64,000 bases of DNA from a virus (lineage: Duplodnaviria; Caudoviricetes). The stretch lies in IMG/VR virus record IMGVR_UViG_3300017721_001026, positions 32,001-96,000 of that record. One strand, 5' to 3'. Below are positions 31,938 to 52,133 of the stretch, one piece after another (the first letter of the stretch is position 1; each line of letters begins with the position of its first letter). The position numbers and the translations under genes were made by a program. The notes below the pieces were generated by a model that saw nothing but the letters and a program-made list of their open reading frames with translations, was not told the origin of the DNA and searched no databases.

Positions 31938-32031
31938 GGGTCTTAAGGATATCTACACACTGTTCTAGGACCTTCTAGAAGGGTCTCTGCAGACGAGAAG
32001 TTACGGGTGTGGAGAGACACGCGCGGGGTCA

Positions 32032-45110: not shown

Positions 45111-45763
45111 TAGTTTTTTCTTCCTGTGTAGATTTTCTTTTCATTATCCCATTCAAAATGGTCAACCATTTCAACATCATCGTCACTTAAGTATAAACCC
45201 CATCCAGTTGCAATATATTTACTGCAAGAATATACGGGATTTCCACGATGAGTATGAGTGTAGAATGCTGGCCAAATTAACATCGTACCTGCCTTTGGTT
45301 GTACTCTGAGACCTTGCCAAAGAAACTCAGTTTCACCTTCACCTTCAGGAATGTCATTCAAATATAACATCCATGCAACACATCTGTCAACGACTCCTAG
45401 ATCATTTACCTCACAATGCCAATCATGAAATCCACCTCTAGGTGAAGTCTTTTGTATTTTTACCTCATCAAAATAGACATCAATATAATCAGAAACCCAA
45501 TACTTTTTACGGTATTGTTCCCAACAATGATCAACAACTTTTAGGACAAGATCTGCACAAGGATTGCCTGATTCCAAGTACCATTGTTCATCATGACGAG
45601 CAAGATAACCTCTCTCACTTTCATCTGAACCATATCCTGCTTTTATTTTACAATCAGAATCGTCGGGATGTTTATAGTTAGATTCAAAGTATTCAATAAC
45701 ATTGTCACATGTAGATTTATCTAATGAATTTAGATAAACACCAATAAAATCACTATCCTTCAT
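45110..45763 (-). CDS. 2OG-Fe(II) oxygenase
   Basis: GGFHDWHCE..WMLYLNDI..GETEF..IWPA.YTHTHRGNP..KYIATGW. Confidence 0.88.
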   Translation of the reverse strand: MKDSDFIGVYLNSLDKSTCDNVIEYFESNYKHPDDSDCKIKAGYGSDESERGYLARHDEQWYLESGNPCADLVLKVVDHCWEQYRKKYWVSDYIDVYFDEVKIQKTSPRGGFHDWHCEVNDLGVVDRCVAWMLYLNDIPEGEGETEFLWQGLRVQPKAGTMLIWPAFYTHTHRGNPVYSCSKYIATGWGLYLSDDDVEMVDHFEWDNEKKIYTGRKN

Positions 45764-47121
45764 ACAATCCAGGTTATGATAGAATATCTAGTTCCTTCAG
45801 TTACAGGTAAAATCTCATGTGGGTACATAAAATTAGATGGGAAAACTAATACATCACCAGCATTGAGTTTATACACTAATTCACGGTTGAATAGTGCAAC
45901 TTCACCACCTTCATAACCATCATTCATTGACATAATGACAGTCAATGCTCTAGGTTGGTCTTTAAATGAATCAGTATGCTGAATATAAAAGTCACCTTCT
46001 TCATACTTTAGTAGTTCATATCCACTATCTTCTTGAATCTCCAATTCAAATTCAGGATAACTTTCCTGATATTCTTCAATGATACCTTTTACAACATTAA
46101 AGAGATAATTATCAATTTCTCTCCTACCCTCTTGATTATTTTCCTCAATAACTGCTTGATCTGAAATTGGAATAAACTCACATCTTCTTGCATCTGGATC
46201 ATGCCCAGCACCAGTTAATGTACTCTCCCAATAGTTAGTTGGAGCATATTCTTCCAAAAGTTTATCGCAAAAATCTGGATCAATAAACTCTTCTTTGTGC
46301 CAGACAAAATGCTCCAAACTAAAACGACTTAATTCCTTTGTTTTAGTTTGTATTTCTGGTGTATTCTTAGGTTTAAGGAACTTTTCATATTTACTATTTG
46401 CTATAACAACGTCATCAAAATTGATATATTGTTCTGTTTCATCATCCTGTTCAATAATATCTAATGAGGATGACTGTTGATCTCTATATTTTTTAGGGAG
46501 AATTGTTTTTGTGGATACATGGTCAAATTTGTTTTTCATTTCATCATACTCCTTTTGTAGTGCTTCATGATCTTCAATGTCTTCTGTGATTAGTCTATCA
46601 AAATATGTGCAACCATACATTCCTCTACTTCTCACATAGTGTAAGAAGATTTGTGCATAATAGTCACCTTCAAATCTACCTCTCCAGTGTGGAGAAACAC
46701 AACCTAAGTATAACACAGCATCACCAGGATTCAAAGTGATGCATTTTTTTACACTTTCTGGTGTCTCAATCCAGATTGCCCAAGGTTTATCACCACCAAG
46801 ATGTACTGTCATTGATATTTCACAAGCAGGACGATCTGTGTGCCTCTTAAGAACACTGTCGTTGCGATATATTCTGGAGTAAGTATATGTTGGTAGAACA
46901 GTTTCACCGATAAGTTCACTAACTGTGCTAGTTTTATTGGTGAGTAATTCTATAGCAGGATGAAAGTTAAAGCATGATGAAGAGTTTGGTGCCTGTTCAT
47001 CACCTTCAAACTTAAATTGTGCGTCTGTTACGATAAACTCTGTTTCTAATCTTTTAGCATAATCTAAATCAATAAAACCAGGAACAACAATGTAGTTGTT
47101 TTTCAATAATTCAAGTTTCAT
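45760..47121 (-). CDS. Tandem two-domain 2OG-Fe(II) oxygenase
   Basis: Domain 1 LKRHTDRPACEISMT..HWR; domain 2 YIQHTD..YEGGE..FPSNFMYPHEI.PV..GTRYSI. Confidence 0.88.
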   Translation of the reverse strand: MKLELLKNNYIVVPGFIDLDYAKRLETEFIVTDAQFKFEGDEQAPNSSSCFNFHPAIELLTNKTSTVSELIGETVLPTYTYSRIYRNDSVLKRHTDRPACEISMTVHLGGDKPWAIWIETPESVKKCITLNPGDAVLYLGCVSPHWRGRFEGDYYAQIFLHYVRSRGMYGCTYFDRLITEDIEDHEALQKEYDEMKNKFDHVSTKTILPKKYRDQQSSSLDIIEQDDETEQYINFDDVVIANSKYEKFLKPKNTPEIQTKTKELSRFSLEHFVWHKEEFIDPDFCDKLLEEYAPTNYWESTLTGAGHDPDARRCEFIPISDQAVIEENNQEGRREIDNYLFNVVKGIIEEYQESYPEFELEIQEDSGYELLKYEEGDFYIQHTDSFKDQPRALTVIMSMNDGYEGGEVALFNRELVYKLNAGDVLVFPSNFMYPHEILPVTEGTRYSIITWIV

Positions 47122-47127
47122 ATGTCA

Positions 47128-48474
47128 TTACTTATCGTTTTTATCTAGAACTTCTTTTAATGCAGCAAACCATTTAACTGCCTTATCTAGAGGCATTCCA
47201 TTACCATCGTCTCTCTCATCATCTGTAAGAGTAGTGTATAGTTTTTCTGGATCAATTTCATCCATGAGTGACAAAATGTCATCAACACTATATTCTTGAC
47301 CACTCTCAATTTCTTGTCTCTCTATACTTTCTTTAGCAAGTTTAGATAGTTGACTTGGATCAGTGTTTTCTGCCTTATGTGATTCAAGAAGTTTTGCTCT
47401 TTGCACTTCTCTATACTCTTTCTCTGCCCTATCAAATTCTCTCTCTAATGCATCATCAAGTTCATCATATGTCTGTTCAATATCCATTTTCTTAAGAACT
47501 TCTTCATGAGATCTCATGATAATATCCATCTCATGATCAACTTCCTGTTGGAATTTTTTCTGTTCCAACTCATGATCAAGTTTCATTTTTTCTCTCTCAC
47601 GCACAACTTCTTCCATTGTAAATTGTGCATCACCCCATGCAGTTTCAAGTCCTTGCTTTTGAAGTTCAAGTTCCATTCTAGAAATTTCAATTTGTTCTAG
47701 TTCAAGTTCACGAACTTTATCATCATTTGCTCTCTTAAGTTCTTTTTCTTGCTCATCTTCAAGAATGTTCTTTTCGAGAAGTTCTGTTTCTCTTTCCATC
47801 TTATCACGTTCCATCTGAAGCAGTTCTTGATACTGCTTTCTTTCCTCAATAAATTCTTCCTTTTCTTTTTCAAAACTATGATAAAGTTCATCATACTTTT
47901 TAGAAAGTTCTAAAGACTTTTTCTGAAAGAATTCATCTGCTTTTTGTTGTTCAAGTGCTGCAACTTCTCTTTCTCTTGCTGCTTTTTCTCTCTCAAGTTC
48001 CATCAGAGTGGTTTGCCTATCATAGACACTTTTCTGTTCTTCTTTAGATTTTAGATCGTAAAGTTTTTCTTTCTCACTACGAAGTTCTTCATTTTGCTTT
48101 TGAAGATCATTAATGATGACAAGTTGTGCTTCTTTCTCAAGTTTATCAATGTTCAATTCTTCAATCTGCTTAGAAAGATTTTCCTCTTCTTCTAATGCCG
48201 CAGCAAGTTCTCTCTGCTCATAGATTGACAAGAATGTATTAAAATAGTCTAGATATGGTTGAACAATAGTATCAAATTCATCTTCACTAAAAATTTTATT
48301 TGGTACAGGATCTTCACCAATGACATCTTCATATTCTAATTCACCTCTGCCATCTCTCCACTGAATTGCATGGACAGTTTCATCATCAAAGTCCCAAGGT
48401 GCATTATCCTCAAGATCAACAGTCTTACCATCTACAATAATTTTTTTATCTTCTGGGATGATGGAAATTTTCAT
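47128..48474 (-). CDS. Acidic long coiled-coil protein with a tail-fibre-assembly-like N-terminal domain
   Basis: N-terminus IIPEDK.IIVDG..VHAIQW.DG.GELEY; ~300 Pro-free Glu-rich helical residues (aa 74-372). Confidence 0.6.
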   Translation of the reverse strand: MKISIIPEDKKIIVDGKTVDLEDNAPWDFDDETVHAIQWRDGRGELEYEDVIGEDPVPNKIFSEDEFDTIVQPYLDYFNTFLSIYEQRELAAALEEEENLSKQIEELNIDKLEKEAQLVIINDLQKQNEELRSEKEKLYDLKSKEEQKSVYDRQTTLMELEREKAAREREVAALEQQKADEFFQKKSLELSKKYDELYHSFEKEKEEFIEERKQYQELLQMERDKMERETELLEKNILEDEQEKELKRANDDKVRELELEQIEISRMELELQKQGLETAWGDAQFTMEEVVREREKMKLDHELEQKKFQQEVDHEMDIIMRSHEEVLKKMDIEQTYDELDDALEREFDRAEKEYREVQRAKLLESHKAENTDPSQLSKLAKESIERQEIESGQEYSVDDILSLMDEIDPEKLYTTLTDDERDDGNGMPLDKAVKWFAALKEVLDKNDK

Positions 48475-48857
48475 TGTTGTTCCTCGTCAGATTCGGGTAG
48501 TAAATTTTCTTCTTCATTATCTATACCTTCGATTTGTTCAATGTATTCAGAAACATTGACACCCTGTGCTTCACACATATCAAGATACATATTGCCAACG
48601 GCATCTAACATGTTCTGATTAGTTTCATGTGCCTTTGTCATTTCATTACGGAATGATTCAACAGCAGAACTTGTAGATCTTTGTTGTTGACTATTTTCAA
48701 TCATCAACATTGGCATCCATTGAACTGCACAAGACCAATGATCTACTGGATTTCCAGTGTTAGGATCTTGCCCAGTGATATGTGTATACCATGCACACTT
48801 ATGTTCGACACAATCTTTTTTAATAAGCGGACACCACTTGCCAGTTGATTTAGTCAT
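48471..48857 (-). CDS. 4-Cys putative metal-binding protein associated with fibre genes
   Basis: CPLIKKDCVEHKCAW..WSCA..P.L.IENSQQQRST..AVESFRNE. Confidence 0.65.
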   Translation of the reverse strand: MTKSTGKWCPLIKKDCVEHKCAWYTHITGQDPNTGNPVDHWSCAVQWMPMLMIENSQQQRSTSSAVESFRNEMTKAHETNQNMLDAVGNMYLDMCEAQGVNVSEYIEQIEGIDNEEENLLPESDEEQQ

Positions 48858-48893: not shown

Positions 48894-50156
48894 TCAATCC
48901 AAACTGCAAAGAATCACATCAATATATTGAACTCTCAATGGTGATAATCCTGCTGTAAATGATATTGGAGATCCAGTAAATGGATGAACGTGTGCTTGAC
49001 CACCACCAGTTGATGATGTTGCAGGTGCTTGAGTATTATTTGCCCTGATAGTACCACCAGGACTCAAAGTTCTCAATGGGAATCTTATACTCGTAACTTG
49101 AGGATATCTTTGAGGTGTACGATATGCTCTTGGTTGTCTATAGGATGCAGGATTTCTTTGAGGAACTGTTATTCTAAACGGAATATCCACTCGGAAACCA
49201 TTTCTCTGCCTGAATGAATATCTCACTCTAAATGTTCTCGGTTGCCTCTGTCTAAAATCTCTTCTCTGCCTACCATTTCTGGGTTGTCTAAAGTTACGAG
49301 GTTGACGGAAAGATCTTCTCTGTCTTCCAGATACAGGTCTTCGAGTTTGCCTTCTTTGCCTATAACTTGTATTTCTAGGTTGTCTTCTTACTGCTCTTCT
49401 TGGGAATCTATCGTTTCTTCTACGTCTCCCTCCTCTTCTTCTTGGTTCTCTATCATTCCTTCTTACACCAACACGGAAAGAGTTTGGAATTGGTCTTCTA
49501 CTTCTTCCACCACCCTGACGGAAACTAAATGGTGCTCTAGATCTTAATGGAACACGGAAAGGAACAGGAACTCTGAAAGTAAATGGATTTCTAGAACGTG
49601 TTTGATATCTAACTCTAAAGTTTCTTGGTTGTCTCTGTCTAAGTGGAACTCTCTGCCTTTGTGGTTGTCTATAGTTAAGAGGTTGTCTTACATTTGTTGG
49701 TTGTCTAAAATCGACACTAACTCTAGTGTCTAGAACAATTCTAGTTGATGCTCTAATATTATATCCACGTGGTTGTCTATTATTTTGTCTAAATGGTGAA
49801 GAACCTTCGGAAGATCTATATGAATTAGGATTACTTCCAGTGTTATGTGTATGTGCAGGAAGTTGATCTGTTGTTAATGTTGTTGGTCCAGTGCTTCCTG
49901 AAAGAGTTGAAGAAACAGTGCTGTCTGCACCAGAATCATTAAATAATGTAGTGAAACTTACAGATCCAGCAGATGATCCACCAGTACCATCAACAACTCT
50001 AAGTGATTTATCGTTTTCTGATATATCTTTAGTCCAACCAGTTGGTGCTGCCGCCTGGTAAAATACCATCGTAGAGGATTGAGGAATAATCCCGTAAAAA
50101 CTATTTAACTGACTGCCACCACCAAACTGAATTCCGTCTGCCTTTAAAATTGACAT
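48894..50156 (-). CDS. Short tail-fibre/collar-type protein with HxH motifs and a ~260-aa Arg-rich insertion
   Basis: Collar-like FYQAAAPTGW..LRVV.G.GG; TTLTTDQLPAHTH..GGGQAHVH..VQYIDVILC; paralog of 50167-50703. Confidence 0.75.
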   Translation of the reverse strand: MSILKADGIQFGGGSQLNSFYGIIPQSSTMVFYQAAAPTGWTKDISENDKSLRVVDGTGGSSAGSVSFTTLFNDSGADSTVSSTLSGSTGPTTLTTDQLPAHTHNTGSNPNSYRSSEGSSPFRQNNRQPRGYNIRASTRIVLDTRVSVDFRQPTNVRQPLNYRQPQRQRVPLRQRQPRNFRVRYQTRSRNPFTFRVPVPFRVPLRSRAPFSFRQGGGRSRRPIPNSFRVGVRRNDREPRRRGGRRRRNDRFPRRAVRRQPRNTSYRQRRQTRRPVSGRQRRSFRQPRNFRQPRNGRQRRDFRQRQPRTFRVRYSFRQRNGFRVDIPFRITVPQRNPASYRQPRAYRTPQRYPQVTSIRFPLRTLSPGGTIRANNTQAPATSSTGGGQAHVHPFTGSPISFTAGLSPLRVQYIDVILCSLD

Positions 50157-50166
50157 ATCTTATACC

Positions 50167-50703
50167 TCAACTAAAACGACAGAGAATGACATCAATATAT
50201 TGAACTCTCAGATCAATACTTCCAGAATATGGTGATGCTCCACCAGAAAATGGGTGAGTATGTGATGTTCCACCACCAGTTGGTGATGTTGCAGGTGCAT
50301 CAGAATTTACAGCACGTCCACCAATACCAGGAGATCCAGGACTTACGTTAACTTGAGAACCCGCATTGTGTGTATGTCCAGGAATTTGCTGAGTGGTCAA
50401 TGTTGTTCCTCCAACAGTACCAACAGCAGTTACAGTTCCACTAATTGGACGAGTTGATGTGGGAAATATGGTAGAGAATGGTTGTCCACCAGGACCAGCA
50501 GTTCCACCAGAACCAAATCCTCCACCAGAACCAGATACAACTCTAAGTGCTTTATTATTATGAGTGGTTACTTGTGCCCATCCACTGGGTGCTGATGGTT
50601 GATAAAACACTGCTACACTATTCTGAGGAATAATGCCATACTTAGAGTTTAAAACAGTATTATCAAGTCCAAATTGTATACCACTCGTTTGCAGAATAGA
50701 CAT
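50167..50703 (-). CDS. Short tail-fibre/collar-type protein with HxH motifs
   Basis: FYQPSAPSGW..ALRVVSG..TTLTTQQIPGHTH..GGGTSHTH..VQYIDVILC. Confidence 0.78.
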   Translation of the reverse strand: MSILQTSGIQFGLDNTVLNSKYGIIPQNSVAVFYQPSAPSGWAQVTTHNNKALRVVSGSGGGFGSGGTAGPGGQPFSTIFPTSTRPISGTVTAVGTVGGTTLTTQQIPGHTHNAGSQVNVSPGSPGIGGRAVNSDAPATSPTGGGTSHTHPFSGGASPYSGSIDLRVQYIDVILCRFS

Positions 50704-50730: not shown

Positions 50731-50744
50731 GTGTATTATTTATC
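50731..50744 (-). promoter_or_regulatory. Late promoter-like (GATAAATA) for the fibre paralog pair
   Basis: ATAAATAATACAC, shared with 48871-48883. Confidence 0.55.
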
Positions 50745-51402
50745 CAATATTAAATGCGATAGATATTCTCTCATTGTCACTAAAATGTGGTGTAACATAA
50801 TGCCCAACTGTAGAAGGCATTAAATACAACCTATTTACCTCAGGTTTAATTACCCATTCACAATGATTGGGGACATCGGCAAATGCAGCATTATGATTTG
50901 ATGGATCAGTTCTGAGAATAGTTAAGTTTCCCTCGTTTTCTTCAAGATTATCAGGAATCATTGGATAATAGATTCCAATAACTGAGCAACCAGGATGTGT
51001 ATGAAAGACGTTGTAACCCATTCCTTTGTTGATGTTAATCCACCAACCAATTTGCTCATCACTAACTCTTGACCCAGAACCACAATCTTCTAACATATCA
51101 TTTGTCAGGTCAATAACATTTCTAGCAAGATTTTGGATTGCAGGTGTAACTCCTCTCCGTATTTCACATAATTCAAAAACTTGACTTTGCCACCCATCTG
51201 CAAAGTTAGATTTCCTAACTCCATTCGGATACTTATCTTTTAGTTCAAAACACTCATCAACAATTTCTTGATTATCAAAATCTAATTTATAATCAAAAAA
51301 TGGTGTGGTGAACAATTCAATTCTATCCCTAGTTTCTACTTCTATAGGAACAAAATTATCATCATTTGGTTTTACTTCTGGTCTAAATCTATGCTCTGTC
51401 AT
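50740..51402 (-). CDS. 2OG-Fe(II) oxygenase (TIGR02466-like)
   Basis: WININ..YN.FHTHP..IYY..MPS..GHYV.P..RISIAFN. Confidence 0.85.
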   Translation of the reverse strand: MTEHRFRPEVKPNDDNFVPIEVETRDRIELFTTPFFDYKLDFDNQEIVDECFELKDKYPNGVRKSNFADGWQSQVFELCEIRRGVTPAIQNLARNVIDLTNDMLEDCGSGSRVSDEQIGWWININKGMGYNVFHTHPGCSVIGIYYPMIPDNLEENEGNLTILRTDPSNHNAAFADVPNHCEWVIKPEVNRLYLMPSTVGHYVTPHFSDNERISIAFNIG

Positions 51403-52133
51403 TATTCTCTTGCCCTAGGATTCCTGAAGAAAAATACTTGATTAATTCTAAACTCAGCATCACTATAGTGATCCGCAAAGTAATTTTTACCCGTAAGATC
51501 CATACTGTGATAATAGTAAGATCCCTCAAACATAACAAATCGATTGAACTTTGATCGAAATCTAACTACAATTTCCCACAAATCTTTAGGTGTCCATGGA
51601 ATAGCATGTTCATCTCTCACACCACCATTCTCATCTAAGGGTAAAATTTTTGGATTGTCAGTAACAGTTGGTTTATATAAATTTGTTCCAATCTCTTCTT
51701 TCTTTGAAAGATAGCAGATACCATTATATCCTCCATCGTGATGTGGCCACCAAAAATGAGTGTCATGTGGGTTTTCTTTAACTTTCGAGAATCTTGTGAA
51801 ATTAGTTACAATCTCATCATCTAGAGGTTGTTGATTACAAATATTGCTAAGTTTATTATATAATGAACAGATACCAGGATGTTTCATCATATGTCTGCGA
51901 TCTTCAAAGTATTTGGTATTAAGAGTTCCTCTACCTAAATCCCATTCTGGTCCAACTTTCCATAGTGGTGGTTCAATCGAAAGTAAGTAACTATAAACAT
52001 CATCAGGTCTTTTATAAAAGTTATCCATCCAATAAAGATTAGATACTCTATTACCATCAACAAACTCAATAATATTCATATTTGAGAAATCATTAGTCTC
52101 AAATAGTGTTGGATCTCTTCTCAAATCTCTCAT
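51402..52133 (-). CDS. 2OG-Fe(II) oxygenase-like (DUF6445-type)
   Basis: DNFYKRPD..PHHD..NGICYL..GTNLY..KFNRFVMF..YHS..RINQVFF. Confidence 0.75.
   Translation of the reverse strand: MRDLRRDPTLFETNDFSNMNIIEFVDGNRVSNLYWMDNFYKRPDDVYSYLLSIEPPLWKVGPEWDLGRGTLNTKYFEDRRHMMKHPGICSLYNKLSNICNQQPLDDEIVTNFTRFSKVKENPHDTHFWWPHHDGGYNGICYLSKKEEIGTNLYKPTVTDNPKILPLDENGGVRDEHAIPWTPKDLWEIVVRFRSKFNRFVMFEGSYYYHSMDLTGKNYFADHYSDAEFRINQVFFFRNPRARE

Follow-up and report, generated by a model that had tools for sequence, protein, structure and literature searches.

The tip of the T4 long tail fibre is formed by gp37, a trimer whose chains run out and back with HxH motifs on the axis, and its needle domain (PDB 2XGF) is held along its length by a ladder of iron ions bound to these HxH motifs. 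T4-like cyanophages matter for carbon cycling in the ocean; to our knowledge, their receptors and fibre tips are largely unknown. Here, a 64,000-nucleotide (nt) stretch of a Caudoviricetes genome (IMG/VR record IMGVR_UViG_3300017721_001026, positions 32,001 to 96,000; hereafter referred to as the window) was analysed for a gene encoding an arginine-rich protein of 420 amino acids (aa), P0001. We read P0001 as a fibre tip of the gp12/Pvc13 class carrying as an insert a long, Arg-coated antiparallel β-hairpin, which would bind the host envelope and be shielded during assembly, and give this reading a probability of roughly 0.6. The original prediction, made from the letters of the window, had proposed a β-hairpin needle of about 40 nm, extremely cationic and symmetric about a central GG turn.

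P0001 resembles gp37 in its out-and-back topology, to which an AlphaFold2 (AF2) model, covariation and arm lengths point. It differs in that its insert (aa 112-370) contains no His, and thus no repeated HxH motifs, and in that the insert consists of 29% Arg, is built of R-x-P-x-N hexads and represents a single insertion in a compact domain of about 170 residues. With T4 gp12, the Photorhabdus Pvc13 fibre (PDB 9QGO) and the tail fibre of Pseudomonas phage Pa223 (PDB 9NXK), P0001 shares a homologous base domain and its motifs, but 287 residues lie between its His motifs compared with about 40-50 in those tips. The β-ribbon arms of HU and IHF are likewise two-stranded antiparallel Arg/Pro ribbons projecting from a compact body; however, they are about 10 times shorter, the match to them was non-significant, and nothing ties P0001 to DNA. 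Very long hairpins are also found in the pore-forming toxin lysenin and in phi29-like tail proteins, the top rows of a Foldseek search (E of at least 0.7), but those hairpins form many-stranded barrels, amphipathic for lipid and not coated with Arg. The likeness to Arg-rich cell-penetrating and antimicrobial peptides lies only in the composition of the tip, RRRGGRRRR; cell-penetrating peptides are short and free, whereas the tip of P0001 is part of a 420-aa structural protein. The parts of the gene are as follows (positions in the window).

48894..50156, minus strand: gene of P0001, the 420-aa Arg-rich fibre-tip protein, ortholog of ORF245 of Synechococcus phage S-SCSM1
49854..50156, minus strand: base (tip) domain, N-terminal part, aa 1-101, common to P0001 and a 178-aa paralog
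49845..49853, minus strand: first HxH motif, H102-T-H104, invariant in 81 homologs
49434..49796, minus strand: outgoing arm, aa 121-241 (AF2 strand 139-219)
49605..49643, minus strand: motif LRQRQPRNFRVRY, aa 172-184, repeated directly at aa 301-313
49416..49442, minus strand: tip RRRGGRRRR, aa 239-247, with the mirror centre G242-G243; low AF2 confidence
49056..49427, minus strand: returning arm, aa 244-367 (AF2 strand 269-348)
49218..49256, minus strand: motif FRQRQPRTFRVRY, aa 301-313, direct repeat of aa 172-184
48984..48992, minus strand: second HxH motif, H389-V-H391, invariant in 81 homologs
48897..49046, minus strand: base domain, C-terminal part, aa 371-420, ending in LRVQYIDVILC

The insert comprises 259 residues, 75 of which are Arg (29%), together with six Asp and two Glu; Lys, His, Cys, Met and Trp are all missing from it. 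The counts given originally (75 Arg, eight acidic residues, no Lys) and all motif positions proved exact, including those of the GG at 242-243 within RRRGGRRRR (starting at aa 239) and of RRNDREPRR and RRNDRFPRR at aa 232 and 246. Arg occupied 17 odd and 3 even positions in aa 112-200 and 6 odd and 19 even positions in aa 280-370, with mixed parity near the tip, in accordance with the proposed alternation of odd positions in the outgoing arm and even positions in the distal returning arm. When Arg residues were paired by reflection, a unique peak was found at i+j=485, the sum of G242 and G243, where 27 pairs accounted for 54 of the 75 Arg. The next-best mirror sums (19-20 pairs) lay at ±6 and ±12 from 485 because the 6-residue period of the insert echoes the main peak. 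The best value reached in 500 residue shuffles of the insert never exceeded 20. The Arg mirror symmetry about the central GG is thus real and goes beyond a chance effect of composition. Pro-Pro mirror matches on their own were at chance level in the shuffle test.

The motifs LRQRQPRNFRVRY at aa 172 and FRQRQPRTFRVRY at aa 301 had been described as lying at mirrored positions. Their equal distance from the centre stands, the midpoint of each being 64.5 residues from 242.5; as mirror repeats they do not hold, since they are colinear direct repeats, at the DNA level too (38 nt, 87% identity, 387 nt apart), and they seem mirrored because each sits in the middle of an arm. Colinear direct duplication was found in the insert at 149->282, 174->303 and 194->321, with shifts of 127-133 aa. 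The genuine mirror signal is the Arg/Pro pattern and not the long motifs, and a direct duplication folded as a hairpin adds a local dyad, so that the duplication and hairpin readings are compatible. No DNA inverted repeat was found in the insert gene, and the mirror pattern is therefore not a DNA palindrome; the only output of Tandem Repeats Finder was a 22-nt array in two weak rows that overlap (period 6/12, scores 30-35). At aa 237 and 251 (49416-49463, minus strand), orthologs carried E/F or F/E, and also T/I and A/I, and never E/E or F/F, a swap that fits spatial pairing near the turn and could also reflect conversion between repeats. In addition, the AT-rich codon AGA encodes 59 of the 78 Arg of the protein, so that Arg is not costly in an AT-rich genome, and the remark that the Arg content arose despite such a genome carries little weight.

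For P0001, AF2 was supplied with the aligned sequences of 81 homologs (A3). It predicted two strands without a break, 139-219 and 269-348, with ten-residue block means of the predicted local distance difference test (pLDDT) of 64-87 in the first strand and 66-88 in the second. Separately from AF2, covariation was calculated on A3 as mutual information (MI) with average product correction. Inter-arm MI peaked on the antidiagonals i+j=485, 489 and 487 (z = 4.4, 4.0 and 3.4, respectively), and none of the direct shifts matched this signal. Among the strongest 50 inter-arm pairs, 23 fell at sums of 483-491 versus 4.5 expected, and the peak persisted when Arg-dominated columns were removed (z = 3.0-4.9). 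Covariation was found on odd sums only, which is a β signature, with side chains on one face of an antiparallel ladder.

At registers 485-489, one face contained 43 R and 22 P, in addition to S and N, and the opposite face 21 Q, 15 F, 12 V, 8 Y and 8 T, in a hexad repeat Φ-R-Q-P-x-N whose outer-face form is x-R-x-P-x-N. At register 485, Arg lay opposite Arg in 21 pairs, and P153 and P159 lay opposite P332 and P326. The Gln/aromatic face would be buried and the Arg/Pro face exposed; from general β-sheet geometry, Pro on one edge parity would be expected of a ribbon whose outer edges are not hydrogen-bonded. The R-x-P-x-N outer face presents residue types that can be hydroxylated by 2-oxoglutarate- and Fe(II)-dependent (2OG-Fe(II)) oxygenases. 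The insert is most likely an out-and-back, antiparallel, two-armed β structure symmetric about the GG turn, as the predicted strands, the covariation and the co-varying arm lengths described below all indicate for the region between the HxH motifs; the data are compatible with pairing of arms from the same chain or from neighbouring chains. Of the proposed dimensions, about 40 nm is an upper bound that needs about 120 straight-strand residues per arm. The modelled strands of 81 and 80 residues, portions of which had block-mean pLDDT values of 64-70, correspond to about 27 nm, and the rod would become shorter if the trimer were supercoiled.

A homolog search among 5.8 billion proteins identified about 80 full-length relatives (411-527 aa, identity down to about 30%), all with two HxH motifs, 278-382 residues apart. 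The proximal stem was nearly constant in length: P121->P177 spanned 56 aa in 76 of the 81 homologs and 62 aa in one five-member subfamily, and R310->G367 spanned 57 aa in every homolog, including those with only 30% identity. The remaining variation in length was confined to the distal part, P177->R310 (125-226 aa), and the densest Arg cluster stayed at the distal midpoint, as RRRGGRRRR, RRRRRRWGRRRRR, RRRRGGARRRR or RRGGRRRRR. Arm lengths of 58-113 aa co-varied with r=0.89 over 20 length classes, a correlation restricted to clear poly-Arg cases, the Arg-density centre being unreliable in Arg-poor subfamilies. Further, when the distal part was taken by itself, its best Arg mirror sum differed by no more than 8 from the anchor sum in 24 of 31 length classes. 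From the fixed stems, the centred Arg cluster and the co-varying arms, it follows that the hairpin grew or shrank at its tip, both arms together; paired indels in homologs, which the original prediction had called for, were indeed seen, and they were distal.

The DNA of the window was 82% identical to that of S-SCSM1 (Kyanoviridae), and the source phage is an S-SCSM1-like cyanomyovirus. The P0001 ortholog of S-SCSM1, ORF245 (421 aa, 77% identical), is annotated as 'short tail fiber protein'. Between the two inserts there were zero indels, and the ratio of nonsynonymous to synonymous substitution rates (dN/dS) was 0.33 in the insert versus 0.34 in the base domain. Most substitutions in the insert were at third codon positions, and a different codon was used at 18 of the 73 conserved Arg. 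The dN/dS values and the synonymous changes at Arg show that the frame is translated and under purifying selection. Net charge varied from +30 to +87 among the homologs examined, so the fold, and not extreme charge, is the constant of the family.

The base domain can be assigned by sequence homology to the gp12/gp37/Pvc13-type fibre-tip (receptor-binding) domains, with two invariant HxH motifs. Directly upstream of P0001 is the gene of its 178-aa paralog, P0002, which has the same N-terminus (MSIL..GIQFG) and C-terminus (LRVQYIDVILC) and about 52% identity to the two halves of P0001. In an alignment of both proteins, P0002 lacked aa ~121-370 of P0001, and between its HxH motifs there was only a loop of about 35 aa where P0001 has the insert. 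By this alignment, the insert is an essentially pure insertion of about 250 aa (121-370), rather than a replacement of a ~10-aa loop of the paralog as had been supposed. P0002 matched PDB entry 9qgo, the C-terminal tip of the Pvc13 fibre (three chains), at E=5e-4, and a profile of 53 short relatives (A4) matched 9qgo at E=3e-10 and 9nxk at E=7.7e-8. According to the paper on 9qgo, this C-terminal region is a homolog of the domains by which phage short tail fibres bind the host. The supplement to the S-SCSM1 paper lists T4 gp12 at 99.2% probability for ORF245, and gp37 (99.5%), gp12 and gp10 for ORF244 (PMC9602691); ORF244 is the P0002 ortholog, annotated as 'tail fiber protein (virion protein)'.

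H102, H104, H389 and H391 were invariant in the 81 homologs, the corresponding His residues were invariant or nearly so in the 53 short relatives, and the base-domain motifs APxGW, TLTxxQxPxHxH and GGGxxHxHP were conserved. Searches of Pfam and PHROGs gave no family for P0001 and P0002, with no Pfam match for P0001 at E≤1. Pfam returned nothing relevant for ten relatives, and Collar (PF07484) was unmatched in P0001 and in these; Collar is a feature-based lead only, being carried by 30% of one ESM Atlas cluster. A Foldseek search with the monomer model of P0002 returned 6ov6, T4 gp10, 9nxk, 8on5 and 1ocy as weak, non-significant rows (E of at least 0.24) that are thematically consistent with fibre tips.

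The neighbouring genes in the window are as follows.

50167..50703, minus strand: P0002, the 178-aa paralog, which lacks the insert; ORF244, its ortholog in S-SCSM1, is a virion protein by annotation
48471..48857, minus strand: 128-aa Cys-bearing protein (5 Cys), directly downstream of P0001
47128..48474, minus strand: 448-aa acidic coiled-coil protein, net charge -60, present at 9/9 insert loci examined
45760-47121, 50740-52133 and further, minus strand: 2OG-Fe(II) oxygenase genes around the fibre pair

Nine loci were compared: the window, S-SCSM1 and seven metagenomic contigs with proteins 32-50% identical to P0001. All nine shared one gene order: 2OG-FeII_Oxy_5 genes come first, followed by one or two short paralogs of 170-179 aa and the Arg-rich protein; then come a protein of 112-133 aa with 4-5 Cys, an acidic coiled-coil protein of 443-500 aa and, last, two 2OG-FeII_Oxy_3 genes. 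At some loci, two short paralogs (176 and 179 aa) precede the Arg-rich gene, e.g., L005 6912-7991. The oxygenase array contained members of the Oxy_5 type upstream and of the Oxy_3 type downstream, including a two-domain protein of 453 aa.

The acidic protein of the window (448 aa, 129 Asp and Glu, net charge -60) is encoded two genes downstream of P0001 (net charge +63). Its gene was present at all nine insert loci examined, and among 50,697 phage records only S-SCSM1 had the protein, no other isolate carrying the insert. Over the nine loci, which belong to two main clades, the charges of the Arg-rich and acidic proteins co-varied with r=0.78, and insert length was correlated with acidic-protein length with r=0.89. 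The Cys-bearing protein (CPLIKKDC...HKC...WSC; 4-5 Cys across loci), always encoded directly downstream of the Arg-rich gene, had relatives in P-SSM2, P-SSM5, S-B05, S-B43, a Roseobacter phage and a Ralstonia phage, and in S-B05 it adjoined a fibre gene with this tip domain at its end. Neither the acidic nor the Cys-bearing protein was assigned to a family by Pfam and PHROGs. On account of their distribution among phages (S-SCSM1 only versus many phages), the acidic protein may be read as a hairpin-specific partner, and the Cys-bearing protein is probably a general helper or assembly factor of the tip domain. The annotated virion proteins of S-SCSM1 do not include the ortholog of the acidic protein, whose simplest role would therefore be to shield charge during assembly.

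Under the reading of P0001 as a fibre tip with a hairpin insert, the chain would exit the base domain between the HxH motifs, run out for about 120 residues, turn at RRR-GG-RRRR and return antiparallel in the register i+j=485-489. The Gln/aromatic faces would pack against a partner or, with three hairpins around a trimer axis, against one another, and the result would be a rod of about 25-40 nm with a coat of Arg. This rod would bind polyanionic material of the host surface, such as lipopolysaccharide or polysaccharide, through guanidinium contacts that would survive seawater ionic strength. During cytoplasmic assembly, the acidic coiled-coil protein, inherited together with the insert and carrying an equal charge of opposite sign, would shield the rod.

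Several points weigh against this reading. Mass spectrometry of S-SCSM1 virions flagged ORF244 and not ORF245, although this absence is weak evidence because trypsin would shred the insert. A charge of +63 per chain is hard to pack in a trimer without counter-ions; at some stage, the insert may be neutralised by the acidic protein inherited with it, whose charge is opposite and about as large. In the AF2 model, the tip (aa 228-272) had pLDDT values below 50, the base domain was poor and the predicted template modelling score (pTM) was 0.18; a base domain of low quality is to be expected when an intertwined trimer is modelled as a monomer. No comparable hairpin was found in the PDB by Foldseek with the P0001 model (best E 0.7), and the VIA wide structure search returned a single row, 6lmh_A, a weak match (48 residues aligned, rmsd 7.5, Z 2.7). 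The covariation and length statistics come from related sequences (effective number about 46), and their z and r values are not probabilities. Likewise, only two main clades underlie the association of the acidic protein with the insert, and the E237/F251 swap could be gene conversion between DNA repeats spaced by 14 codons rather than a compensatory change. A trimer prediction (three copies of aa 122-362, with A3) gave a score of 0.00 and partner pLDDT values below 50, which speaks neither for nor against the model.

The hairpin could be real and yet not a naked needle, being instead permanently combined with the acidic coiled-coil protein in a composite fibre that is close to charge-neutral. 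This is suggested by the strict co-occurrence of the two genes (9/9 loci, and S-SCSM1 alone among the phage records), by charges that nearly cancel (+63/-60 and +65/-62, r=0.78) and by the longer acidic proteins that accompany longer inserts (r=0.89). We nevertheless regard a permanent composite as unlikely: the acidic ortholog of S-SCSM1, ORF247, was not flagged as a virion protein, though it is rich in Lys/Arg sites and should be readily detected, a locus with an HxH spacing of 323 aa had an acidic protein of 447 aa, no longer than those at loci with shorter inserts, and with two main clades only the correlations are confounded by phylogeny. It is rather improbable that the insert is an intrinsically disordered, protamine-like region serving as a polycationic tether or nucleic-acid binder, with the AF2 hairpin as an artefact of the repeats. 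Its composition of R, P, Q, S, N and G is typical of disordered regions, pTM and tip pLDDT (<50) were low, and no structural precedent was found, the only weak fold match being an HU-like DNA-binding β-arm (Z 2.7). However, disorder does not account for proximal arm lengths that are essentially fixed (56/57 aa) down to 30% identity, for register-specific covariation on odd sums that is kept without Arg columns, or for arms that lengthen together. Block-mean pLDDT values of about 64-88 over the predicted strands, a dN/dS equal to that of the folded base domain and a face that is hydrophobic and aromatic also argue for a folded insert.

We see very little chance that the symmetry is the mere footprint, structurally meaningless, of a tandem duplication of about 129 aa and a local one of 14 aa. 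Such duplication is evident in the colinear direct repeats with shifts of 127-133 aa and DNA identity of up to 87%, but translation of a segment cannot yield an Arg mirror pattern at a single sum, antidiagonal instead of direct-shift covariation, or distal expansions that stay centred across very different lengths. These three features rule out a simple tandem duplication as the whole explanation. The insert might also be a substrate array, in which Pro, Arg and Asn of the R-x-P-x-N face are hydroxylated by the flanking oxygenases and the modified surface functions, an idea that appears quite improbable as an explanation of the insert. It draws on the presence of 2OG-FeII_Oxy_5 genes upstream and 2OG-FeII_Oxy_3 genes downstream of the gene pair at 9/9 loci, but S-SCSM1 encodes 24 2OG-Fe(II) oxygenases scattered over its genome (PMC9602691), and given this number and the conserved gene order of cyanomyoviruses the linkage is weak. 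Hydroxylation of this face is compatible with the hairpin reading and not exclusive of it.

A literature search found no paper combining an arginine-rich insert with a cyanophage tail fibre, and the text of the S-SCSM1 paper neither discusses ORF244 and ORF245 nor mentions the Arg-rich insert (PMC9602691). The annotation of a gp12-like gene and the tip domain are thus known, and what is new is a conserved Arg-rich structural element on the tip. If the hairpin model holds, the element would be one of the longest two-stranded β structures known, and a rare visible case of evolution lengthening a hairpin symmetrically from its tip. More tentatively, a symmetric 25-40-nm rod built solely of paired arms of about 120 residues, with Arg, Pro and Asn outside and Gln and aromatic residues in the core, and growing at its tip, an acidic partner and possible tailoring by oxygenases might together define a new class of fibre element, a polycationic probe that tolerates salt and with which marine cyanophages would bind or breach the host envelope. 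The family offers a testable handle on the first contact of T4-like cyanophages with Synechococcus and Prochlorococcus. Moreover, the partner of opposite charge suggests a general route to build highly charged virion parts inside cells, and the Arg-only, Lys-free design may show how electrostatic recognition works at seawater ionic strength.

The tip-domain family as a whole gave 5661 matches among 1.84 billion representative proteins, and the Arg-rich insert was present in only about 15 of its 50%-identity clusters. The three chains in 9qgo and 9nxk, together with relatives in which one chain carries three copies of the domain, point to a trimeric base domain, presumably with a metal on the threefold axis. 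Such relatives, including P0077, P0085, P0086, P0147 and others (577-592 aa), contained three tandem tip-domain copies per chain with 11-12 HxH motifs, and each of these chains may be a pseudo-trimer, the domain being normally trimeric. In addition, two tip-domain copies were found in P0130 (362 aa).

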